Source of the DNA: an uncultured Eubacteriales bacterium | Lineage (GTDB): Bacteria > Bacillota > Clostridia > Oscillospirales > CAG-272 | DNA: 64,000 nucleotides | Direction of reading: 5' to 3' | Assembly (NCBI GenBank): GCA_934467415.1 | Contig: CAKSLQ010000003.1 | Location: 77,957-141,956, forward strand | Part shown: piece by piece, positions 4,468 through 61,857 of the stretch | Position numbering within the stretch: position 1 is the first letter of the stretch | Layout of the letters: the number at the start of each line of letters is the position of its first letter | Position numbers and translations under genes: made by a program | The notes under the pieces: generated by a model | Seen by the model: only the letters and a program-made list of their open reading frames with translations | Told to the model about the DNA's origin: nothing | Database searches by the model: none

Positions 4468-6870
4468 ATGAAGAGATTTACGAGAATCCTTGCAGGCGCA
4501 TGCGCGCTGCTGCTGGCGACCGGTTCGCTTACCGGCTGCTTCGGCAGCAAAAAGAAGCTGCCCGATAAGCAGACCGTTGACCATGTCTACAAGTACGAGC
4601 AGCGGGAGCTGTACAAGGTCGCACGCCCGGACGATGACAAGGACGTCACCGAGCGCGAGGACATCTACAACACGCTTTCCGATGTCAACGGCTATATGTT
4701 CCTCGTCTGCCGGTCGGATAAGGACTACAACGAGCTCGGCTACACGCTGCACTACGGCAAGTTTGACGGCGAGGACAAGTCGATAGAGCTGCCCGTGGCC
4801 GAGGATGCGGACAGCTATATCTCCTACGGCAGTTTTGCGCGCTTTGAGGATGGCTTTGCCCTGGTCGAGCAGCGCAACATCCTCATCGACAAGGAAAACT
4901 ATGTGTACGACCAGCAGTCCAATTTGCAGATCTACGACGAGAACGGCGTCTTGCAGTCGACCGTCGATCTGCGGAAGGCGTTCGGCATTCCGGACGACGG
5001 CTACATCAACGTCGAACGGGTGCTGCGGCATGACGATACGCTGTACCTGAGCTGTTACGGCGAAAGCGGAATGACCCTGCAGACGATGAGCCTCGACGGC
5101 ACGCTCGGCAAGACCGTCCCGGTCTTCCCGGACGGCACGGACGGCTACATGAACAACATGTTCTTCACGGCGGACGGCAAGATGATCGTCTGCGCGGACA
5201 TTTACGGCACGGACAGCTCAAAGCAGCTGATTATCACGCTCGACCTTGCCACCGGCGCGCGCACCGAGCTGGATACGAAAAACGACTACCGGCTGGGCAA
5301 TTCGCTGTTTGCGGGCCCCGACGGCACCTTCTACTGCTCGGATCAGAACGGTATCTACACCGTTGACCCGACGACGCTTGCAAAGACCGAGATCCTCAAC
5401 TACATCAACTCGGACTACATCTATAAATACAGCAATTTTACGATGCTGCCCGACGGCAGGATCGCCACCTTCAGAGGCAACTACAACCCGGGCGCCATGG
5501 CCTCGACCTACGCCGTCACCATCTTTACCAAGGTGCCGGACAGTGAGATTACGCCGAAGTACATCATCACGGTGGCGTCGGCGGGCTATGCCTACAATCT
5601 GCAGGAGCAGATCGTCAAGTACAACCTGGCCTCCGAGGAATACCGCATCAAGTATGTGGACTATTCGCAGTACAACACCGATGAGGACTACACGCTGGGG
5701 CAGACCCGCCTCGGCGACGACATCCTTGCGGGCAATGTGCCGGATGTGCTGATCGCCGACCAGCAGTTCTCGGTCTCGAAATACGTCAGCAAGGGGCTGT
5801 TTGCCGACCTCTACACCTTCATCGATAAGGATGAGAGCATGAAGCGCGAGGAATTCCTCGAAAATATCCTTGCCGGCTGTGAGATCGACGGCAAGCTCTA
5901 TGAGATCCCGACCAACTTCTATATTCAGGGGCTGATCGGTCCGAAGGAGACGATCGACACCTTCCGGGACCTCACCATCCGGGAGTTTGTTGACAAGCTC
6001 TCCACCCTGCCCGAGGGCGTGACCTTCTTCCGCGACGGCGACATCACCCGCGAGACCCTGCTGCAGATGCTGTTCCTCACCAACTATCAGAACTTCATCG
6101 ACCGCAAGACCGGCAAGTGCAGCATCAACAACGACGAGTGCCGCGCGCTGCTCGAATTTGCCAAGATGATGCCCGAAAAGAGTCTTTGGGACAGAGAAGG
6201 CTTCGATTCCTCCACGTTTGACTGGGACGCGTACAATAACATGTTCCGCGACGGCAAGGCGCTGGCGCAGGGGGTCTCCATCGGCGACTTCTCCGGCATC
6301 CGGGATTATGCCTACAGCTACGGGAAGGATACGGAGCTTGACTTCATCGGCTTCCCCGCGCCCGACCGTGCCGGCATGAGCTTCACCACGGCAAACCTCA
6401 AGTTCCTCGTCAGCGCAAAGGGCGCGTTCCCGGATGCGTCATGGGAATTCGTCAAGATTTTCCTTGCGGATGATTACCAGACCAACCAGTCCTGGGGCTT
6501 CCCGGTCAAGAAGGCCGCGCTCGACGCAAAGAAGCAGGCGATGCTCGACCAGATCAAGGAGAATGAGAAAAACCGGGACGAAGACGGCGACACGACGGGC
6601 GACGGCAACATCATCGGCGTGGCACGGGCGACGATGATCGACGATGTTTACTATGACGATGTTTACTATCGCCGCGAGGTGACCGCCGCGGATGTCGAGA
6701 CGGTCTACGGCTATGCCTGCACCGCCAAAAAGCAGTTTGTCTATGACACCAGCCTGTTCGACATCATCAACGAGGAGGCTTCCGCCTACTTCGCGGGGAC
6801 GAAAACACTCGACGAGATTCTCCCGCTGATGGAGAGCCGCATCACCATCTTCCTCTCCGAGGGAAGATAA
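4468..6870 (+). CDS. large lipoprotein: beta-propeller-like N-terminal half plus extracellular solute-binding (SBP family 1-like) C-terminal half
   Basis: Signal peptide with lipobox LTGC. C-terminal half has SBP-like sequence (PKYIITVASAGYAYNLQEQ..GNVPDVLIAD..GKLYEIPTNFY). Lies downstream of the ABC permeases. Confidence 0.7.
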   Translation: MKRFTRILAGACALLLATGSLTGCFGSKKKLPDKQTVDHVYKYEQRELYKVARPDDDKDVTEREDIYNTLSDVNGYMFLVCRSDKDYNELGYTLHYGKFDGEDKSIELPVAEDADSYISYGSFARFEDGFALVEQRNILIDKENYVYDQQSNLQIYDENGVLQSTVDLRKAFGIPDDGYINVERVLRHDDTLYLSCYGESGMTLQTMSLDGTLGKTVPVFPDGTDGYMNNMFFTADGKMIVCADIYGTDSSKQLIITLDLATGARTELDTKNDYRLGNSLFAGPDGTFYCSDQNGIYTVDPTTLAKTEILNYINSDYIYKYSNFTMLPDGRIATFRGNYNPGAMASTYAVTIFTKVPDSEITPKYIITVASAGYAYNLQEQIVKYNLASEEYRIKYVDYSQYNTDEDYTLGQTRLGDDILAGNVPDVLIADQQFSVSKYVSKGLFADLYTFIDKDESMKREEFLENILAGCEIDGKLYEIPTNFYIQGLIGPKETIDTFRDLTIREFVDKLSTLPEGVTFFRDGDITRETLLQMLFLTNYQNFIDRKTGKCSINNDECRALLEFAKMMPEKSLWDREGFDSSTFDWDAYNNMFRDGKALAQGVSIGDFSGIRDYAYSYGKDTELDFIGFPAPDRAGMSFTTANLKFLVSAKGAFPDASWEFVKIFLADDYQTNQSWGFPVKKAALDAKKQAMLDQIKENEKNRDEDGDTTGDGNIIGVARATMIDDVYYDDVYYRREVTAADVETVYGYACTAKKQFVYDTSLFDIINEEASAYFAGTKTLDEILPLMESRITIFLSEGR

Positions 6871-7083: not shown

Positions 7084-9534
7084 ATGAACAGACGTATACG
7101 GATGCTTGCAGGCGCGCTCGCGGCGGTGCTTGCCGCCGGCAGCCTTGCCGCCTGCGGCGAAAAGAAGCGGAAGCTGCCCGAAAAGCAGGTGCTTGACCAT
7201 GTCTACAAGTATGAGACGAAGACGCTTGCCACTTACGACGAGGTGAAGTGGGACGATGATGCCCAGAGAGATTTCAAGGGCTATACGGAGGTGCAGGACA
7301 CGGTGATCTCACCGGCGGGCTATGCCTACCGCACCGTCACCGTGGACAAGGATTACAACACCACGGCGCAGTCCGTCTCCTTCGGCCGATTTGACGGCAG
7401 CGATCCGGTGACGGTGGACAGCGTCCTGCCGACCGGCAACGGCGACTCGGTCTACTTTTCCGTCACGGCGGTCGTGCCGGAGGGGCTCGCCGCTGTCATG
7501 GACGAAAACCGCGTGGTCGGCGAGCAGAAGGTTGACGGCGAAACGGTTCCGATCTACGAGCGAAAAACCTATCTGCGCATCTTCGGCTTTGACGGCGAAA
7601 AGCTGTCCGAGACCGAGATCACCCCGGCGCTGTTCGGGCTGGCCGACCCGGGCGCAAACGGCTATTTCGGCGTGGGAAACCTCATCACCGACGGCAAGGA
7701 TCTGTACATGACCCTGCGCAGCGACAACACCGAGGCGACGGGCAAGCTCTTTCATCTCGGCGCGGACGGCAGCCCGAAGGAGCCGATCACTCTCGCGGAC
7801 GGCGGGGACTATTACTTCCAGTCGCTCTATTTCTTCGGCGAGGGCAAGCTGTTTGCGTCCTACTATGACCAGAGCGGCGGCGGCTCGGCGGCGTTTATCC
7901 TGGATATCGCGACCGGCAAGAAGACCAAGGTGGAAAGAGACAGCTTCCCCGGCGGCTATGCGGTGCTCTACAACTCCTTCGGCGGTCCGGACGGCATGTA
8001 TCTGTTTGACAGCACCGTCGGCGTGTACAAGCTGGATACCGACGCGATGACGCAGGAGATGGTCTGCAACTTCCTCAATTCGGATTTCATCTTCTCTTCG
8101 GGCAGCATGTCCTATTCCAATCTGCCGCTCGCGTCGCTCGGCGACGGCAGGTTTGCGGCACTGCGCAGCTCGACGAAAAAGGGAAAGACCTCGACACAGC
8201 TCAGCGTGCTGGAGCCTGCCGACCCCGCCGCGCTTCAGCCGAAGTACATCATCACGGTGGCGTCCGCGGGCTATGCGTACAATTTTGAGGAGCAGGTGGT
8301 CAATTTCAATCTCTCCTCGGACGAGTATCGTATCAAGTATGTCAATTACGGCACCTATAATACGACGGAGGATTACACGCTCGGCGTAAAGCAGCTCAAG
8401 GCGGACATCCTGGCCGGCAACGTGCCGGACATCCTGATCGCGGACGAGAGCTTCTCGGCGGCGGATTACATGAACAAGGGCGTCTTCGCCGATCTCTACA
8501 CCTATATCGACAAGGACGAGACCCTGACGCGGGACAAATTCCTGCCCAACATCCTTTCGGCGAGCGAGCTGAACGGTAAGCTCTATGAGCTGCCCACTTC
8601 CGTCTACATCTTCGGCATGATGGGCGAGAAGTCACGGGTCGCCGAATTCGGCGGGCTGACGATGCGTGAGTTTGCCGACAAGGTCGCGGCGCTCCCCGAC
8701 GGCGTGAAGTTCGTGCGCGATGGCGACAACACGCGCGACCAGATGCTGCGGATGCTGTTCTTCATCAACTATGCGGACTTTATCAACCGTGCCGACGCGA
8801 CCTGCGATTTCGACAACGACGATTTCCGTGCGCTGCTCGAATTTGTGAAGACCGTGCCCGAAAAGTTCATGCAGGACGACCCGAATTTCAATTCGGATAC
8901 CTTCGACTGGGACGCGTACAACAACATGTACAAGGAAGGCAAGGCGATCGCCCAGATCTCGGGTCTGACCGATTTCTTCGGCTTCGAGAACATGTCATAC
9001 ACCTTCGGCACGCTGGAGACCGACCTTGTCGGGCTGCCGTCGCGGGACAGAAACGGCTACGCCTTCAGCGCAACCCAGCTCAAATTCCTGCTCAGCGCCA
9101 AGAGCCCGTTTGCGGAGGAGGGCTGGAAGTTTATCCGGCAGTTCTTCACGGACGATGTGCAGACCTCGCTCGAATACGGCTTCCCGGTCACCGTGTCCGC
9201 GCTGAACGCGGCAAAGCAGGCGGCGCTCGACAAGATTGAGAAGCGCGCTGCCGAGCAGAAGGAAGGAACCGGCAAGGTCAACGGCTACATGGTCGGCGAC
9301 AACGGCGTGACCATCCCGATCTACGATCAGGGCACGCGGTATGAGACCGCCGCGGATGTGGAGCACATCTACGACATTGTGATGTCCGCAAAAAAGCCGC
9401 TCGGCTATGATGAAAGCATCTACAATGTCATCATGGAGGAGGCATCGGCGTATTTCTCCGGCGAGAAGAGCGTGGAGGAGGTCACCAAGCTGATTAACAA
9501 CCGGGTGGGGATCATCCTGACCGAAAACCGGTGA
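7084..9534 (+). CDS. large lipoprotein, paralogue of 4468-6870 (propeller-like N-half + SBP-like C-half)
   Basis: AAGGAG SD. Lipobox LAAC. Colinear with the upstream paralogue (KLPEKQVLDHVYKYE; PKYIITVASAGYAYNFEEQ; GNVPDILIAD; GKLYELPTSVY). Confidence 0.7.
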   Translation: MNRRIRMLAGALAAVLAAGSLAACGEKKRKLPEKQVLDHVYKYETKTLATYDEVKWDDDAQRDFKGYTEVQDTVISPAGYAYRTVTVDKDYNTTAQSVSFGRFDGSDPVTVDSVLPTGNGDSVYFSVTAVVPEGLAAVMDENRVVGEQKVDGETVPIYERKTYLRIFGFDGEKLSETEITPALFGLADPGANGYFGVGNLITDGKDLYMTLRSDNTEATGKLFHLGADGSPKEPITLADGGDYYFQSLYFFGEGKLFASYYDQSGGGSAAFILDIATGKKTKVERDSFPGGYAVLYNSFGGPDGMYLFDSTVGVYKLDTDAMTQEMVCNFLNSDFIFSSGSMSYSNLPLASLGDGRFAALRSSTKKGKTSTQLSVLEPADPAALQPKYIITVASAGYAYNFEEQVVNFNLSSDEYRIKYVNYGTYNTTEDYTLGVKQLKADILAGNVPDILIADESFSAADYMNKGVFADLYTYIDKDETLTRDKFLPNILSASELNGKLYELPTSVYIFGMMGEKSRVAEFGGLTMREFADKVAALPDGVKFVRDGDNTRDQMLRMLFFINYADFINRADATCDFDNDDFRALLEFVKTVPEKFMQDDPNFNSDTFDWDAYNNMYKEGKAIAQISGLTDFFGFENMSYTFGTLETDLVGLPSRDRNGYAFSATQLKFLLSAKSPFAEEGWKFIRQFFTDDVQTSLEYGFPVTVSALNAAKQAALDKIEKRAAEQKEGTGKVNGYMVGDNGVTIPIYDQGTRYETAADVEHIYDIVMSAKKPLGYDESIYNVIMEEASAYFSGEKSVEEVTKLINNRVGIILTENR

Positions 9535-9612
9535 CATTTGACCGGCGCAGACTGAATGGCGAAAGGGAAGTGGAATAAGGTTTTGCTGTCTGCATAGCTT
9601 CAAATATAAGTG

Positions 9613-9640
9613 GAAAAGCACCCGTAACGGGTGCTTTTCT
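9613..9640 (+). terminator. rho-independent terminator
   Basis: AGCACCCG-TAA-CGGGTGCT stem-loop followed by TTTTCT. Confidence 0.8.
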
Positions 9641-9730
9641 CCATATTGGAGTTGTTTTTCGCGGATTCTGCATCCGCCTGCGCCGGTCAAGGCGGCGGGG
9701 GTAGGCGATGTTTGCGCAAAAGGAAACAAA

Positions 9731-9778
9731 GCCTTCCCCAGTGGGGGAAGGTGTCGGCGGAGCCGACGGATGAGGTGT
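9731..9778 (-). repeat. solo HP-I arm (3'-arm type)
   Basis: GCCTTCCCC-AGTG-GGGGAAGG-T-GTCGGC-GGA-GCCGAC-GGATGAGGTGT. Nearly identical to the arm at 28513-28560. Confidence 0.8.
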
Positions 9779-9843
9779 TTCTCCTGCGCCGGGCAGACGG
9801 CGGGGTGGGGATTTTTTGCGGAAAGAAACGGGGACGCACATTT

Positions 9844-9985
9844 CCGGTAGGGGTCGGCGCCCTCGACGACCCGCGCTCACCTTAGTGCAGGCGGGTGATT
9901 CGTGAATCGCCCCTACGGGATTGCAAAGGTTTTCGCGCACCGCACACCATTTTCACCGTAGGGCGGGGGCTTGCTCCCGCCGCAA
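9844..9985. repeat. mosaic of shared intergenic modules
   Basis: CCGGTAGGGGTCGGCGCCCTCGACGACCCGC (9844-9874) is the reverse complement of pieces at 55485-55499, 55587-55598 and 61565-61582. GTAGGGCGGGGGCTTGCTCCCGCCGCA (9958-9985) recurs at 55622-55648. Confidence 0.75.
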
Positions 9986-10007
9986 ATGTACGCGGACAAC
10001 TCTTTTT

Positions 10008-10118
10008 ACCTCCCTCGGTGAGGGAGGTGGCACGGCAACGCCGTGACGGAAGGAGTCTTGCTCTCTGCAAAACTCCCCCAGTCACCTATCGGTGACAGCC
10101 CCCTCAGCGAGGGGGCTG
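10008..10118 (-). repeat. HP-II five-hairpin element, copy 1 (inverted relative to the other two)
   Basis: Reverse complement aligns end to end with 50671-50778 and 61613-61718. Five consecutive stem-loops. Confidence 0.85.
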
Positions 10119-10156
10119 AAAATATAACAACCATAGAGCGCCGTCTGCGCCCCTCC

Positions 10157-10185
10157 TTGACAACGGCATACGGATGCGGTACAAT
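10157..10185 (+). promoter_or_regulatory. sigma-A type promoter
   Basis: TTGACA, 17-nt spacer, TACAAT. Lies about 30 nt upstream of the ATG at 10216. Confidence 0.55.
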
Positions 10186-10215
10186 AGGGACATCAACAAA
10201 AAGAGAGGTGCGCGT

Positions 10216-10962
10216 ATGCAGGGGCAGGACAACGACAAGCTGACGCCGACGGCCGAGCCGGGCGGGAAATTCTTTCGCCGGCTCGACAACTTCTGGTATC
10301 ACAACAAGTGGAAGACCATCATCGTGAGCTTTCTGCTTCTGACGCTCATCGTCTGCGCCGTGCAGTTTGCGGGGCGCGAGGACGCGGACATCTACATCCT
10401 CTATGCCGGGCCGTACAAGTTCGGGCAGACCGACACGCAGAGCCTTGAGAGCGCGTTTTCCGCCGTGGCGGGCGACCGCGACGGCAACGGAAAGGTGCGC
10501 GTGGAGCTGATCGACCTCTATCTGATGTCGGACGAGCAGATTGAGGGCGCGGTCTCGTCCGCGCAGGTCGGCGGAGAGGGCGCGGTGGTCGTCAACTACG
10601 AGATGTTCAGGAGCAACCGCACCGCGTTTGACCAGCAGATTCTCGCGGGCGACGTGGTGATCTGCCTGCTCGACCCGTGGCTGTATGCCGATGTGCGGGC
10701 GGCGGACGGCTTTCTGCCGCTGGCCGACGCGCTGGGCTACACGCCGGAGAACGCCGTGGACGAATACGCCGTCCGCATCGGCGACACGCCGCTCGGCAGC
10801 TATTTTTCGGTGCTGCGCGGGCTGGATCGCGACACGCTGCTCTGCGTGCGCCGCATGAGCAGCTTCTCCTTCCTCAAGGGGCAGACCCGCACCGAGAAAT
10901 ATTACAGCTACTGCCTCGACACCTTTAAGAAGATTTTTACCTTCGAAGCGCCGACGGAATAA
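10216..10962 (+). CDS. hypothetical membrane-anchored protein
   Basis: ATG 10216 (MQGQDNDK..). Single TM (TIIVSFLLLTLIVCAVQF) followed by an extracytoplasmic domain. No family recognised. Confidence 0.6.
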   Translation: MQGQDNDKLTPTAEPGGKFFRRLDNFWYHNKWKTIIVSFLLLTLIVCAVQFAGREDADIYILYAGPYKFGQTDTQSLESAFSAVAGDRDGNGKVRVELIDLYLMSDEQIEGAVSSAQVGGEGAVVVNYEMFRSNRTAFDQQILAGDVVICLLDPWLYADVRAADGFLPLADALGYTPENAVDEYAVRIGDTPLGSYFSVLRGLDRDTLLCVRRMSSFSFLKGQTRTEKYYSYCLDTFKKIFTFEAPTE

Positions 10963-11068
10963 GCCTCCCTTGTGTAAAGGGAGTGTGTCCCGAAACGCAA
11001 GCGTTCCTAATGAGTTTCCCTTGCGGGAAACATCATCGCCGACGGAGGGATTGTTTTGTATGGAACAA

Positions 11069-11116
11069 CCCCTCAGTCACCTGACGGTGACAGCTCCCCT
11101 TGCACAGGGGAGCCTG
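11069..11116 (-). repeat. half HP-II element (hairpins 1-2 plus CTGAGGGG)
   Basis: CCCCTCAG-TCACC-TGAC-GGTGA-CAGCTCCCC-TTGCAC-AGGGGAGC. Reverse complement matches the left half of HP-II and the GGCTCCCCTGTGCAAGGGG module. Confidence 0.7.
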
Positions 11117-11142
11117 CATAGCAGGTTTACTCAAAGCCCCCG

Positions 11143-21685: not shown

Positions 21686-21852
21686 AAGTATTCTGCGTAT
21701 CCTCCGTGTTGTCGGACGGTTACCCGTCGGTTTTGCCGGAAGATGCGGCGGCAGTCCGCCGTCGGAGCATCCGCCGAATGGGCAGGCGAGCCTGCCGCTC
21801 TCGATAACTCCGATCCTCGTTAACCGCGCGGTGCGCGGTCTGGCGCTAAAGG
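21686..21852 (-). ncRNA. glmS: glmS ribozyme (GlcN6P-activated)
   Basis: The minus strand reads ..UUU-AGCGCCAGACCGCG..GGUUAACGAGGAUCGGAGUUAUCGAGAGCGG..UUCGGCGGAUGCUCC.., matching the conserved glmS core and cleavage-site context. Lies directly 5' of glmS. Confidence 0.9.
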
Positions 21853-21934
21853 CGCGGCACATGTGCCGACGCCCTTTTCATGAGCGTATATTTTCTGCGG
21901 CTCCGCCGCGGAAAAACAAAATATGAAATCCCGT

Positions 21935-28512: not shown

Positions 28513-28985
28513 GCCTTCTCCAGTGGGAGAAGGTGGCGGCGCAGCCGTCGGATGAGGTGTTTACGACAGCTGCAAGCTGTCGTAATCCAAGCACAGCTTG
28601 TCCAGTATATCTGCGGTTACAGAACCGAAGTTTTTGCGGATACTATCATTGGAATAACGAAGCACAGTAATCCCCCACAGGGCAAGCTTCTCATCTCTTT
28701 GTGCATCAGTTTGTACATGTGCATCGGACAGATGCTGTTTTCCGTCTACTTCAATCGCTATTTTTTTCTCTGCAATATAAAAGTCCAGAATATAGTTTTC
28801 AATATTGTGTTGACGCCTCACATTGCAGGGAAGTTTTTTCAGAAAGTCATACCAAAGATGCTTTTCTTCCGGTGTCATATTTTTACGAAGCGTTCGCGCG
28901 TTTTGGACAAGCTTTTTATTATATGGCAGCATGGCTACTCCTCATCCACCGCTGACGCGGTCCCCCTTCTCCCGCAGGAGAAGGC
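28513..28985 (-). mobile_element. candidate selfish element: DUF559 endonuclease ORF bracketed by double-hairpin inverted arms (HP-I, full-length form)
   Basis: Arms at 28513-28560 and 28938-28985. Each reads GCCTTCTCC-N4-GGAGAAGG, then a second hairpin, then GGATGAGG, in inverted orientation. The interior is visibly AT-rich compared with the flanks. The same arms occur without an ORF elsewhere in the window. Confidence 0.55.
28561..28932 (-). CDS. DUF559 domain endonuclease (Vsr-like PD-(D/E)XK fold)
   Basis: ..NYILDFYIAEKKIAIEVDGKQH..RDEKLALWGITVLRYSN.. is the typical DUF559 core. SD GAGGAG lies 5 nt before the ATG. Confidence 0.8.
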   Translation of the reverse strand: MLPYNKKLVQNARTLRKNMTPEEKHLWYDFLKKLPCNVRRQHNIENYILDFYIAEKKIAIEVDGKQHLSDAHVQTDAQRDEKLALWGITVLRYSNDSIRKNFGSVTADILDKLCLDYDSLQLS

Positions 28986-34550: not shown

Positions 34551-34652
34551 CCGTACAGCGGGATGCGGAATACGCACCGCAGGGCAAAGCCCTTTCGTCC
34601 GCTCCGCAACTCCCCGTCGGGGCGGCACTGTACGCGCGCATTCCTACTCTGT
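34551..34652 (-). promoter_or_regulatory. THF (tetrahydrofolate) riboswitch aptamer
   Basis: The minus strand reads ACAGAGUAGGAAUGCGCGCGU..GGGGAGUUGCGGAGCGGACGAAAG..CUGCGGUGCGUAUUCCGCAUCCCGCUGU. This matches the conserved AGAGUAG / GCGU / CGCGGUG / GCAUCCGCU elements of the THF-I class. Located 5' of folT. Confidence 0.8.
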
Positions 34653-34716
34653 AATTTAATCAGTTGAAAAATTCTGTTCTTCAACTGCCGACTCTATTAT
34701 AGTCGCTTTCTGCGGC

Positions 34717-36683: not shown

Positions 36684-36812
36684 GGCTCCCCTGTGCAAGG
36701 GGGTGAGTTGTACGAGACACAAAAGCGTCTCGCGGAGTTTTTCTTCGTCGGCTAAACACCGACGATTTCGCGAGCGAAACCGAAAAACATCCTGACGCAG
36801 TTGACTGAGGGG
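36684..36812 (-). repeat. intergenic module mosaic (GGCTCCCCTGTGCAAGGGG module, ~60-nt shared module, half HP-II)
   Basis: The reverse complement of ~36735-36798 matches 55499-55557 almost base for base. GGCTCCCCTGTGCAAGGGG recurs at 50608 and, inverted, at 11091. Confidence 0.75.
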
Positions 36813-50548: not shown

Positions 50549-50557
50549 AGGAAAATG

Positions 50558-50592
50558 AAAAGGGAACGAACGGAAAGTTCGTTCCCTTTTGT
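50558..50592 (+). terminator. rho-independent terminator
   Basis: 13-bp stem AAAGGGAACGAAC / GTTCGTTCCCTTT followed by a T-tract. Confidence 0.85.
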
Positions 50593-50670
50593 GTTGATGT
50601 GTTTTTCGGCTCCCCTGTGCAAGGGAGGCAAAGAGAGATTGCGCACGGTGCGAGAAATCGGTTCATCTTT

Positions 50671-50778
50671 CAGCCCCCTCGGTGAGGGGGCTGTCACCGA
50701 TAGGTGACTGGGGGAGTTTTGCAGAGAGCAAGACTCCTTCCGTCGCCGTTCGGCGACACCTCCCTCACCGAGGGAGGT
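50671..50778 (+). repeat. HP-II five-hairpin element, copy 2
   Basis: CAGCCCCCT..AGGGGGCTG, TCACC-GATA-GGTGA, GGAGTTTTGC..GCAAGACTCC, GTCGCC-GTTC-GGCGAC, CCTCCCT..AGGGAGG. Confidence 0.85.
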
Positions 50779-50861
50779 AAAAAGAGTAGTTCGTGCAAAG
50801 ATTGCGGCGGGAGAGAGCCACCCCTCCATGCGGTTAAAGTCTTTTCTGTCTTCCTGAATCC

Positions 50862-54492: not shown

Positions 54493-54710
54493 CTGTGTTA
54501 CACCTCCTTATGGACTGATGGCCATGCACGAACACATGGCAAGGGGGTAGGGTCAACTTCGGTCAACCTATACCGAATCAATATTCTACCATGCAAAAAA
54601 GGCTTTGTCAAGAAAAATCATCAATATTTTTTACGGAACGTGCCGAAAAAACTGCGCACACGGGCGGATTTTGTGCTAAAATAAAGGCAGTTATGGTTTC
54701 GGAGGCAGTT

Positions 54711-55361
54711 ATGACGGTCATGTATTTGGTGCGCCACGGGCAGAGCGAGGGCAATGTACGCGGCGGATTTGCGGGGCGCGTGGACTACGCGCTCTCCGAA
54801 AAAGGCGCGCGGCAGGCGCGCCTCACGGCGGATTTTCTCGGCGGCGTGCATCTCGACGCCGTCTGCGCAAGCCCGCTGCGCCGCGCGCAGGAGACAGCCG
54901 CACCGATCGCGGCCGATCACGGGCTTGTGACAGAGACGCGCGCGGGGCTTGTCGAGTTCGATTTCGGCGACTGGGAGGGGCTCGCGCCCGACGTGCTGAA
55001 TGCCCGCTTCCCGGACGCCGTGCCGACCTGGAAGTATCACCTGCCCGACGTCGCCTGCCCGCACGGCGAGCGCATGGCGGACTGCTTTGCGCGGGCCGGG
55101 GCGGAATTTGCCGCGCTTGCGCGGGACTATGCCGGGCGCGACGTCTGCGTCGTGACGCACGGCGCGTTTCTCAAGTGCCTTTTCTGCGTGCTGCACGGTC
55201 TGCCGCTTCGTGAGATCGACCGCGTGCCGTGGGCGGACAACGCCTCGGTGACCAAGGTCGTCATCGGTGCGGACGGCGTCCCCGCGATCGAATACGAGAA
55301 TTACAGCGCCCATATGGGCGACCTCGTCACCGGCGTCTCCCGCACCCTCACCGAGAAGTAG
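54711..55361 (+). CDS. histidine phosphatase family protein (phosphoglycerate mutase-like)
   Basis: LVRHGQSEGN catalytic motif. ATG 54711 lies 6 nt after GGAGG. Confidence 0.8.
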   Translation: MTVMYLVRHGQSEGNVRGGFAGRVDYALSEKGARQARLTADFLGGVHLDAVCASPLRRAQETAAPIAADHGLVTETRAGLVEFDFGDWEGLAPDVLNARFPDAVPTWKYHLPDVACPHGERMADCFARAGAEFAALARDYAGRDVCVVTHGAFLKCLFCVLHGLPLREIDRVPWADNASVTKVVIGADGVPAIEYENYSAHMGDLVTGVSRTLTEK

Positions 55362-55365
55362 GGGC

Positions 55366-55781
55366 GGGAACGCGCAAACCGCACGGGGGCTTACTCCCGC
55401 CGTCCGAACCCAATCTGACTTTGGCTCCTCCTGACGGGGGAGCTGTCGCCGTAGGCGACTGAGGGAGAGATAACGCAAAGCAAGGCGGGTCGTCGAGGGA
55501 TGTTTTTCGGTTTCGCTTTGCGAAATCGTCGGTGTTCAGCCGACGAAGAAAAACTCCTTAGGAACACATCGTGTTCCGGGGGTCATGACCCCTACCGGAT
55601 TGTACAAAAGACGCACACACTGTAGGGCGGGGGCTTGCTCCCGCCGCACCTGCTCATACAAAACAATCATTCCCCGGTTGTTATTTTACTTTGCAAAAGA
55701 CACCTCATCCGTCGCCGTTCGGCGACACCTTCCCCCGCTGGGGAAGGCAAAGAACGCGGGTGACCGTACCGTTCTAACCAA
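55366..55781. repeat. dense mosaic of intergenic hairpin modules
   Basis: Contains a half HP-II (55423-55468), the ~60-nt shared module (55499-55557), GTAGGGCGGGGGCTTGCTCCCGCCGCA (55622-55648) and a solo HP-I 3' arm (55700-55748). Confidence 0.8.
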
Positions 55782-55944
55782 GCCTTCCCCCTTGGGGGAA
55801 GGTGGCGTGTAATACGCCGGATGAGGGGTAGCCATTCGTCAGAATGGCGTCTCACAGCACAGAACGAGACTGCGCAGACGGATGCTTACGCATCCTACCC
55901 CTCATCAGTCAACTCCGTTGACAGCTTCCCCCAAGGGGGAAGCC
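55782..55944. repeat. HP-I miniature (gene-less, symmetric arms)
   Basis: A and B hairpins, then GGATGAGGGGTA, then three small hairpins, then TACCCCTCATC followed by B' and A' hairpins. Confidence 0.85.
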
Positions 55945-56117
55945 AAAAGACGCTTTGCGTCTCGTACGGCTCTCCCCACCGGGGAAGCCTAAGGGCGAAG
56001 AGCGCTTTCTTCTCCGCTTCCCGCAAACAACCCGCCGGAAACGGCGTATTTTTTGTATTTACTTGCCGGGCGGCGGATGCTATGATTGAAATAGGAAAAA
56101 ACGCGGAGGAAACCGAC

Positions 56118-61380: not shown

Positions 61381-61420
61381 AGGTAATAAGGTAGGAAATG
61401 CAGGGCGGCGCGTTCTCCAA

Positions 61421-61559
61421 GCCTTCCCCTTGGGGGAAGGGGGACCGCACCCGCGGTGGATGAGGGATTGCAGGCAGCAGGCACAGCATTGTGTGATGCT
61501 TTGCTTGCATCAATCCCTCATCAGTCGCCTACGGCGACAGCTTCCCCAATGGGGAAGCC
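61421..61559 (+). repeat. HP-I miniature (gene-less, with 5'-arm and 3'-arm polarity like the DUF559 copy)
   Basis: Left arm ..GGGGAAGG-GGG-ACCGC-ACCC-GCGGT-GGATGAGGGATT. Right arm AATCCCTCATC-A-GTCGCC-TAC-GGCGAC-A-GCTTCCCC-AAT-GGGGAAGC. Confidence 0.85.
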
Positions 61560-61612
61560 TAAGAGGCGCCGACCCCTACCGGGTTTGTGGAGAATCTGCA
61601 CAATCTGTCTTT

Positions 61613-61718
61613 CAGCTCCCTCGGTGAGGGAGCTGTCGCCGAAGGCGACTGAGGGAGTTTTGCTCTGAGCGAAACTCCTTCCACCGCTGGCGCGGTCCCC
61701 CTCCCTCAATGAGGGAGG
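61613..61718 (+). repeat. HP-II five-hairpin element, copy 3
   Basis: Colinear with 50671-50778. Stems differ by paired substitutions. Confidence 0.85.
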
Positions 61719-61761
61719 TATAATTACTGTCCATCCCATCGAATTAAATTTCAAAAAACAC

Positions 61762-61790
61762 TTGACAAGCTATATCCGATTTCGTATAAT
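61762..61790 (+). promoter_or_regulatory. consensus sigma-A promoter for rpmH
   Basis: TTGACA, 17-nt spacer, TATAAT. Confidence 0.7.
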
Positions 61791-61857
61791 ATAGATTGTC
61801 TTATTGTGAATACACGCGAAGTTTCCGCTTCCGAAATACTGCAAGGAGGTGCAACCA

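Follow-up and report, generated by a model that had tools for sequence, protein, structure and literature searches.

REP-Like Units in the Window

The window analysed here is a 64,000-nucleotide (64-kb) stretch of contig CAKSLQ010000003.1 from an uncultured Eubacteriales bacterium, with a G+C content of about 60% and proteins that match gut-metagenome Clostridia. Its intergenic stretches at 9535-10215, 10963-11125, 50549-50861, 55362-55820 and 61381-61800 are dense in perfect short hairpins. Among these lies a 31-nt unit, U, which on its sequence features is a GTAG-tagged repeat of the repetitive extragenic palindromic (REP) type, widespread in gut Oscillospiraceae-like Clostridia. U occurs bare and also as a shell whose two arms enclose hairpin-bearing cargo. 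This shell-and-cargo design, which recurs in dozens of related gut genomes, is read here as a REP-like modular repeat system and not as a single local insertion. The three copies of U in the window, all intergenic, and their sibling units are the following; BIME stands for bacterial interspersed mosaic element.

9844-9874, minus strand: intact U in its bare form, a GTAG-tagged REP-like hairpin of 31 nt, reading GCGGGTCGTCGAGGG-CGCC-GACCCCTACCGG on the minus strand and CCGGTAGGGGTCGGCGCCCTCGACGACCCGC on the plus strand
9891-9916, minus strand: sibling GTAG unit V1 (GTAGGGGCGATTCACGAATCACCCGC), tail-to-tail with U and forming with V2 a BIME-like cluster at 9844-9983
9958-9983, plus strand: sibling GTAG unit V2 (GTAGGGCGGGGGCTTGCTCCCGCCGC), head-to-head with V1
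55485-55598, plus strand: composite U::M3, the U arms around an 87-nt three-hairpin cargo, a member of a dispersed composite family
55622-55647, plus strand: V2 unit, head-to-head with the composite and 25 nt from the CTAC of its U, a typical doublet spacing
61565-61582, plus strand: orphan half of U, the right one (GGCGCC-GACCCCTACCGG), joined to GCCTAAGAGGCG, the flank on the 3' side of the E2 element at 61420-61563

In the opposite reading U runs CCGGTAGGGGTC-GGCG-CCCTCGACGACCC, written whole CCGGTAGGGGTCGGCGCCCTCGACGACCC, that is, the GTAG tag and then the hairpin. The sequences that the initial annotation gave at 9844-9874, 55485-55598 and 61565-61582 are all correct to the base. The 15-mer GCGGGTCGTCGAGGG has two exact matches in the window (the intact copy and 55485-55499) and the 12-mer GACCCCTACCGG has three, against an expectation of 0.19 even when one mismatch is allowed; three or more were seen in 0 of 100 shuffles. 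Since the two exact blocks keep their order and orientation within about 100 nt, chance is excluded and homology is certain. The GGGTCG/CGACCC hairpin with a short loop that had been described for U is present, but its stem is longer, with nine positions, one mid-stem T.C mismatch and the 4-nt loop AGGG (GGGTCG.CG[AGGG]CG.CGACCC). The fold has an energy of -7 kcal/mol, by itself no better than that of shuffled sequence (z = 0.13).

To follow U outside the window, one genome per species in GTDB was scanned for two U arms lying 32-92 nt apart. The scan returned 87 loci, about 60 of them in gut or rumen metagenome-assembled genomes (MAGs) of Oscillospiraceae, Ruminococcaceae and unclassified Clostridia. 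About one quarter were chance matches in high-GC phyla and were left out by eye, as was a class with 91-nt inserts that is one conserved protein-coding region. The 87 loci, fetched as 8-kb segments, contain about 70-79 intact copies of U as by-catch and 74-95 loaded ones, with at least 12 loci coming from one MAG (SVTT01); bare U is the commonest form. The GTAG tag stands directly 5' of the palindrome (CCGGTAGGGGTC...) in all three window copies and in every fetched copy, and sibling GTAG units alternate in orientation beside U. A head-to-head GTAG partner, mostly 26-28 nt away, accompanies 28 of 148 copies (8 of 69 intact and 20 of 79 cargo-bearing), compared with a background of 1.4%. With its GTAG tag, imperfect hairpin, doublets and clusters, U therefore has the sequence features that define REPs.

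An amplification form distinct from cargo loading was seen in the SVTT01 loci (Oscillospiraceae bacterium SIG702; L141-L222, e.g. L157 and L219), where the left arm and loop of U alone form tandem (GGGTCGTCGAGGGCGCCGRMAAAC)n arrays that finish in one complete unit. In IMG/VR, an exact 26-mer of U lies on two contigs, adjoining other GTAGGGG hairpins. The remaining IMG/VR scans were set aside: the 15-mer alone gave, among the matches listed, random matches in GC-rich phages, an 18-mer gave coding or unrelated matches only, and one split-pattern match was a chance match within an actinophage gene.

A Composite of U and a Three-Hairpin Cargo

Both halves of U are present at 55485-55598, as had been claimed, and the composite and its neighbour are made up of the following parts.

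55423-55467, plus strand: left half of an E-type element (two hairpins and GAGGGAG), a neighbour of the composite and outside it
55485-55499, plus strand: left arm and loop of U (GCGGGTCGTCGAGGG), exact 15-mer
55499-55557, plus strand: shared module S60, GATGTTTTTCGG[TTTCGC..GCGAAA]TC[GTCGG..CCGAC]GAAGAAAAACTCC, a three-way junction closed by GGA.GTTTTTC/GAAAAACTCC
55560-55577, plus strand: third cargo hairpin AGGAACAC-ATC-GTGTTCC, the variant found in U; the variant in E-type arms is GAGACGC..GCGTCTC
55578-55592, plus strand: junction palindrome GGGGGTCATGACCCC, formed by the cargo end and the right arm of U; other copies have GGTCGCCATGACCCC with the CGCC of U kept
55587-55598, plus strand: right arm of U and complement of GTAG (GACCCCTACCGG), exact 12-mer

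The insert had been estimated at about 85 nt, comprising a shared module of about 60 nt and another hairpin. That composition holds, and the exact length is 87 nt (55500-55586), divided into the 59-nt module at 55499-55557, the hairpin at 55560-55577 and a terminal GGGGGTCAT. This copy of S60 is about 95% identical to a second one at 36734-36791 on the minus strand. The module is itself nested, in that the stem GGA.GTTTTTC/GAAAAACTCC encloses two hairpins; a simpler relative in locus L001 has a plain TTTTCCC-TCC-GGGAAAA hairpin at the same place. The window composite is slightly decayed: it no longer has CGCC, its right arm pairs with the insert end (GGGGGTCATGACCCC) and its left arm is unpaired. 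In L159, L217 and the 83-nt cargo family described below, the shell still closes a multibranch fold.

The initial annotation had modules apparently inserting into the loops of other modules. A local insertion at 55485-55598 is contradicted by the occurrence of the same composite at other flanks in L159, L217 and L220, where the E-type half element of the window does not precede it; the window copy was therefore not made in place. U::M3 was found with 12 distinct outer flanks in gut metagenomes and in three GTDB genomes (L159, L217 and L220), with inserts of 86-87 nt, and the window composite is best placed in a family that spread as a unit. The alternative parsing of 55423-55592 as a single E-type element with an expanded central loop was rejected, as the composite occurs without that left arm in L159, L217, L220 and 13 metagenome copies. 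No promoters or terminators were found in 55300-55900.

Other Cargos at the Same Position in U

The composite of the window is one of many. Among the scan loci, about a dozen unrelated inserts, some of them single-copy and each with hairpins, occupy the same slot, AGGG^CGCC, between GAGGG and (CGCC)GACCCC. The largest family, a 65-nt cargo, has about 20 copies at 10 or more loci in at least seven genomes; an 83-nt family has nine distinct copies, and further families or single copies measure 38, 40, 48, 54, 61 and 67 nt. Several families keep CGCC or CGTC at their right end, which places the junction directly after the AGGG loop. No U shells were found around large cargos of 130-4000 nt, and no DUF559 genes were found near U copies. 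A histogram of breakpoints based on short seeds was discarded, its signal being swamped by chance 9-mers.

Cargo Shared Between Different Hosts

S60 also resides in larger palindromic elements, designated E-type. The E-type and E2-type elements of the window include the following.

10963-11113, plus strand: complete E-type element, its left arm hairpin loaded with a two-hairpin cargo; missing at the orthologous site in a strain with a 94% identical neighbouring protein
28513-28985, minus strand: E2-type shell with a DUF559 (Vsr-like nuclease) open reading frame (ORF), 28561-28932, in its central loop
36684-36815, minus strand: right half of an E-type element, whose arm hairpin holds the second S60 of the window (36734-36791), followed by GAGACGC..GTGTCTC
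61420-61568, plus strand: complete short E2-type element with hairpins a and b, GATGAGGG...CCCTCATC, hairpins d and e, and flank
The ORF-less E2 centre reads GATGAGGAG...CACCTCATC

The hosts of S60 were surveyed in a host-blind metagenome scan, in which the pattern was the S60 core alone and the surroundings were left unspecified. Sixty copies were recovered on 57 human-gut contigs. The host was an E-type right-arm hairpin in 44 of them, U in 13 and a hybrid in one, with the left flank truncated or unclassifiable in the other two; none of the 60 stood in a third context or free. The E-type hosts had 33 distinct outer flanks and the U hosts 12.

The junctions lie at fixed places in each host. 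The left junction reads GGGTCGTCG-NNGG-(A/C)TG in every copy hosted by U. What precedes the cargo in an E-type arm hairpin is its 5' arm and loop plus 1-6 nt of its 3' arm, a host segment of 7-16 nt compared with 15-17 nt in the simple hairpin, and after the cargo comes the last GAC or TAC of the arm, e.g. GTCGGC-TAAC-GCC^[AGGATG...GCGTCTCG]^GAC. Host bases are often replaced at the junctions, and AGG is common to host and cargo at most left junctions. A clustering of breakpoints at loop apices had been put forward as a check. The breakpoints are non-random, but they fall at the 3' edge of the loop in U, or 1-6 nt into the 3' arm in E-type hosts, and not at the apex.

The strongest single case is that of L227, a Bacillota MAG in which a 69-nt cargo occurs twice, 3 kb apart, with 67 of 69 positions identical and with identical boundaries. 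The shell of the first copy is GGGTCGTCGAGGG/GCCGACCCC (also written GGGTCGTCGAGGG and GCCGACCCCTAC), and that of the second is GGGCGGATGAAGG/ATCCGCCCC (also written GGGCGGATGAAGG and ATCCGCCCCTAC). Both shells are REP-like and hold the cargo at the same relative position, their outer flanks are unrelated and their arms differ at about half of the positions. With arms so different and a cargo almost unchanged, the slot is set by structure in different hairpins, and mere drift of one shell does not account for the pair. Host and cargo combine many-to-many.

A DUF559 gene in the central loop of a palindromic shell, which had been cited as the same geometry as the loaded U, was borne out as a conserved shell at two independent loci. 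The ORF at 28561-28932 on the minus strand, of about 123 aa and low G+C, matches DUF559 with E = 5e-27 and lies between the two E2-shell arms. One homologue, 90% identical, occupies the same locus in a sister species, and another, 73% identical, an unrelated locus in another species (loci L294-L313). Both carry the same shell, and ORF-less copies of it exist, one directly beside the second homologue (L304, 3095-3250). At least 4,806 relatives belong to the family; most lie on contigs shorter than 3 kb, and nearly all are unnamed or generically named. From these comparisons, the DUF559 shell looks like an undescribed selfish element with miniature derivatives; literature searches on DUF559 together with palindromic or mobile repeats returned nothing relevant. 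Separately, a hammerhead-like core starting from CTGATGAGGG in E2 elements was considered and dropped, as no GAAA core follows it and it has no Rfam match.

Orphan Halves and Turnover Between Strains

The third window copy of U, GGCGCCGACCCCTACCGG at 61565-61582, had been described as a version of the right half with a different left partner. The sequence is there, but it is not an instance of nesting. Across 61557-61582 the 3' flank of the E2 element passes into the loop and right arm of U (GAGGGCG, then CCGACCCCTACCGG), the two sharing GAGG(G)CG across the junction, and the left arm of U is absent from the other side of the element. The flank GCCTAAGAGGCG occurs also in L001, L002, L004 and L244. 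Three more orphan right halves in the by-catch begin at (R)GG/CGCC, and all four break in the loop. Left-half orphans of U with new partners were not found; the search gave only coding look-alikes and decayed copies. The orphan halves are apparently recombinants broken in the loop region. A route by which such orphans can arise via shared cargo is seen in L255, a copy of S60 whose left side is E-type host sequence identical to that of L244 and whose right side is the right arm of U.

Taken together, the nested modular architecture that had been proposed for the window is borne out as general and non-random: many cargos occupy one slot in U, S60 lies in two hosts with fixed junctions, the 69-nt cargo lies in two shells and the DUF559 gene sits in a conserved shell at two loci. 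It does not extend to the split copy as a local insertion, to the third copy, or to junctions at loop apices.

The repeats also differ between close relatives. The AlaRS-rpmH spacer of the sister species has two alleles, in which each arm hairpin of one E-type element is either simple or replaced by a two-hairpin cargo; the flanking genes are about 98% identical and the proximal arm is retained each time. The whole E-type element at 10963-11113 (about 150 nt) is missing in the strain with the 94%-identical neighbouring protein. In L004, 160 nt are missing, including a perfect GTAGGGGCGACC doublet, with a breakpoint in a hairpin loop. The spacer at 9535-10215 holds about 550 nt of modules, compared with 127 or 73 nt in relatives. 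With differences already present between strains of about 98% identity, the repeats form a fast-evolving layer of the genome.

Two further sites illustrate what such events may leave behind. The E-type element (10945-11125) lies at the extreme 3' end of the gene at 10216-10962, whose last codons and stop differ from those of the element-less strain, and the insertion therefore appears to have remodelled the C-terminus of the gene. At 10730-10765 in L002 a single hybrid hairpin (AGCCTTCTCCCCCAAGGGAAGCCT) stands where L004 has a complete E2-type element (10735-10990). It seems to come from recombined terminal hairpins, resembling the formation of a solo long terminal repeat, which is possible because each palindromic end repeats the other in direct as well as inverted orientation.

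A RAYT-Like Gene Beside U

In at least one relative U stands in a putative REPtron arrangement, i.e. beside a gene for a REP-associated tyrosine transposase (RAYT). The locus is L193, from a Eubacteriales MAG, where U forms a tandem array of 7.3 copies with a 30-nt period, 270 nt upstream of a RAYT-like ORF at 1419-1826 (region 1419-2306). The ORF encodes 135 aa and has a U-like hairpin at its start codon. Its sole NCBIfam match is the REP-associated tyrosine transposase (E = 1e-15), and the HUH and tyrosine motifs are present. A second RAYT-like gene was found in L176. We infer that a RAYT moves U and its composites. The ORF in L193 also contains two GTAGGG motifs on the opposite strand, encoding a repeated KAPTPT stretch, which may be REP-like units inserted in frame.

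Proposed Mechanism and Alternatives

The explanation that we favour, and to which we give about an even chance, is that U is a RAYT-handled REP whose apical slot has been loaded with cargo and whose composites still spread. The lower stem (GGGTC/GACCC) with the GTAG tag would be the part needed for recognition by the RAYT, and the apical part, comprising the upper stem and the AGGG loop, would be a tolerant slot in which multi-hairpin cargo modules have lodged at AGGG^CGCC. With its recognition part intact, the composite would still behave as a REP and disperse whole, in many cases within a head-to-head doublet of which it forms one arm. Similar slots would be provided by the arm hairpins of the larger E-type elements and by their central loop, which holds the DUF559 gene. 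What matters in E. coli REPs is the GTAG tag, the lower stem and the mid-stem mismatch, with the upper stem-loop limited to a non-specific structural role (PMC8266576), so a loaded REP could still be processed and spread.

As to how the cargo got in, it would have entered by template switching or microhomology-mediated joining at the tip of an extruded hairpin, with AGG shared at the left junction, and shared modules would later have served as portable homology for exchange. The microhomology, like the replacement of host bases, speaks for template switching or for a break at the extruded tip. Active, structure-targeted insertion is still compatible with L227 and with the fixed AGG junction, which leaves room for a bolder version, a self-nesting repeat ecosystem in which hairpin modules are actively and structure-specifically inserted 3' of extruded loops in RAYT-type REPs and DUF559-associated elements, with the composites going on to replicate. 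We regard this version as unlikely; if true, the choice of a target by a DNA hairpin tip instead of by sequence would be a new targeting mechanism.

Several points weigh against the favoured explanation. No RAYT gene was found in the 64-kb window, so that the link rests on another species, and the RAYT-like proteins of L193 and L176 score 58 and 64 bits, under the curated NCBIfam cutoff of 80 bits. Apical tolerance would be carried over to the U family from the E. coli enzyme, and group 3 RAYTs read their loops. The shell of the window composite no longer closes, and this copy may already be immobile. The GTDB scan demanded that both arms be intact and could detect cargo only between the arms, and fixed junctions within a cargo family may stem from one ancestral event. 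No orthologous site was found with bare U in one strain and cargo-bearing U in another. The microhomology of AGG at the left junction fails for the two-hairpin cargo of the GATGATG type. Finally, the hybrid in L255 could reflect either recombination via a shared module or a chimera of short-read assembly.

Among the rival explanations, one takes the cargos to be tiny active single-stranded DNA elements, like ORF-less derivatives of the IS200/IS605 insertion sequences (IS), that insert 3' of a short target in extruded loops. Its appeal is that in U, and in most E-type arms, (N)AGG or AGGG directly precedes the cargo, and that in L227 two unrelated shells without flanking homology hold one cargo with identical boundaries. 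The cargos are also hairpin-ended and without terminal inverted repeats, and genes resembling Y1 HUH transposases exist in these genomes. An element that moves by itself does not, however, fit well with S60, which was never found outside two host types or free-standing. The right ends vary with the host (the GGAACGC or the GAGACGC hairpin), host bases are often replaced instead of being cleanly interrupted, cargo of the GATGATG type does not follow AGG, and no autonomous partner with these ends was seen. On balance this explanation is doubtful.

Equally tentative is a reading in which the composites are by-products of host replication and repair on dense palindromes, through tip breakage, template switching and ectopic recombination, and spread only by gene conversion among existing copies. 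Every palindromic module repeats its relatives in both orientations, direct and inverted, and this would ease such events. Several of the observations above have this character: the AGG and GAGG(G)CG microhomologies across junctions, the L255 hybrid with one host on its left and another on its right, the L004 deletion with its breakpoint in a hairpin loop, the E2 element seemingly collapsed to one hybrid hairpin in L002 compared with L004, the replaced host bases, and the four orphan right halves all broken in the loop. Gene conversion, however, needs flanking homology, and the L227 shells share none beyond the cargo. Composites in many unrelated flanks (12 and 33 contexts) indicate that new sites were colonised, and a whole 150-nt E-type element is present or absent between strains.

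It is quite improbable that the composites are transposable elements of the miniature inverted-repeat type (MITEs), with the two halves of U as terminal inverted repeats, variable interiors, and the 31-nt unit as a minimal element or excision scar, so that nothing was inserted into a hairpin. A conserved shell around about a dozen unrelated interiors and the dispersal of composites as units would suit this idea. Against it, U occurs most often bare, is found in tandem arrays next to a RAYT-like gene and bears the REP hallmarks of GTAG and doublets. Its arms measure 6-9 nt, compared with about 15-30 bp for the terminal inverted repeats of a MITE. The flanks of four U::M3 and 18 U::65-nt copies showed no evident target-site duplication, no IS with these ends was seen, and the interiors occur in unrelated hosts too.

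Least credible of all is that the nested hairpins are expansion segments of a structured RNA selected at the RNA level, e.g. as transcript stabilisers or terminators: the predicted folds are strong (z = -4.9 for 55481-55602) and the stems vary between copies while staying complementary, but no Rfam 15 family matches the modules at its gathering score (sub-threshold matches in 55350-55960 are meaningless), no terminator-like site was found and both strands fold equally (-29.8 and -27.5 kcal/mol), on which grounds it is ranked low, and in addition the bare and loaded copies of the window are oppositely oriented relative to the flanking genes, the stems contain few G.T pairs and are Watson-Crick on either strand, and the copy number and dispersal are typical of genomic repeats.

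Comparison With Known Repeat Systems

The closest known system is that of the REPs and BIMEs of E. coli with their RAYT (the REPtron). Both have GTAG 5' of an imperfect GC-rich hairpin with a mid-stem mismatch, extragenic location and, judging from the fetched loci, an apparently high copy number, differing units that alternate in orientation with characteristic spacers and, in a relative of the window genome, a cluster of units beside a RAYT-like gene. In contrast to E. coli, the host here is a gut Firmicute, the loop slot of U holds multi-hairpin cargos of 38-87 nt common to other repeat families, the window has no RAYT, and the RAYT-like proteins of relatives fall under the curated NCBIfam cutoff. 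The repeats with loaded loops in gut Clostridia are a variation on the REP/BIME theme.

REPINs, associated with Bertels and Rainey, are REP doublets that reportedly form the replicating unit. They resemble the head-to-head doublets described here, with a fixed spacing of about 26-28 nt and with a perfect doublet, GTAGGGGCGACC..GGTCGCCCCTAC, present in some strains of a sister species and absent in another. Unlike in REPINs, a doublet here often pairs two different units (U with V2), and one arm may carry cargo. ERIC (enterobacterial repetitive intergenic consensus, also known as intergenic repeat units or IRU) and the pneumococcal BOX elements are small intergenic palindromic repeats as well; the former have short forms and longer forms with extra blocks at fixed internal sites, and the latter consist of interchangeable boxes (BOX A/B/C). 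These families are known with one or two fixed types of insert and are not known to carry a GTAG tag, whereas here several host and many cargo families interchange and hairpins are nested up to three levels.

ORF-less IS200/IS605 derivatives are similar to the cargos in being small and hairpin-ended without terminal inverted repeats, with a left end that abuts AGG in most copies, and Y1 HUH enzymes occur in the clade. No autonomous IS with the ends of the cargos was found, however; the cargos, at about 38-87 nt, are far smaller, and their right ends are host-dependent.

Firmicutes and Clostridia go unmentioned in the 2013 survey of GTAG repeats (Di Nocera et al., 2013; PMC3733652). Some GTAG repeats in that survey have a self-complementary region of up to 27 bp within the loop, and in Anabaena, Thermomicrobium and Halothiobacillus it describes REP dimers enclosed by longer palindromes (PMC3733652). 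These complex loops and dimers share the nested geometry of the U composites. In the families of that survey, though, the loop variants are short and family-specific and unusual loops were discarded, whereas discrete modules of 38-87 nt lie in unrelated hosts here. Literature searches on nested bacterial MITEs, on REPs in Oscillospiraceae and on RAYT in Firmicutes returned nothing relevant. For the DUF559 shell, the nearest comparison is with homing endonuclease genes, as DUF559, Vsr and the homing endonuclease I-Bth0305I belong to one PD-(D/E)XK clade (PMC3424549). In both cases a free-standing nuclease gene lies within conserved sequence that exists also without the ORF; the home here is a dispersed palindromic repeat instead of a conserved gene's intron or intein.

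These repeats matter in that they fill the intergenic DNA of abundant, poorly cultured gut Clostridia, break short-read assemblies and spawn spurious small ORFs. If the shell-and-cargo reading of U is true, the loaded copies would be a natural experiment on the parts of a REP that a RAYT needs, and REP/RAYT biology would be extended to Firmicutes. Through the E2 shell, the DUF559 nuclease genes, a very large family, are tied to a palindromic element that looks mobile and has ORF-less derivatives.

Other Observations in the Window

The contigs of the closest strains (L011-L013 and L228-L229; neighbouring proteins 94-99% identical) stop exactly where repeat-filled spacers begin. A GTAGGGGCGGGA...TCCCGCCG unit (55358-55402; L011, 4746-4813) overlaps the stop codon of a histidine phosphatase gene, and a 99%-identical strain diverges wholly after GCGCAAAC within that unit, which marks another breakpoint inside a GTAG unit. 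For the ORF at 54591-55361 the first in-frame start is wrong, and the real protein has 216 aa.

The sole Rfam families at gathering score in the window are a tetrahydrofolate (THF) riboswitch at 34554-34653 (minus strand, 94 bits) and a glmS ribozyme at 21689-21858 (minus strand, 64 bits). Adjacent paralogues at 4468-6870 and 7084-9534 each encode about 800 aa, one of them including a solute-binding-protein domain, and stretches of the two genes share 69-84% DNA identity at an offset of 2.6-2.7 kb.

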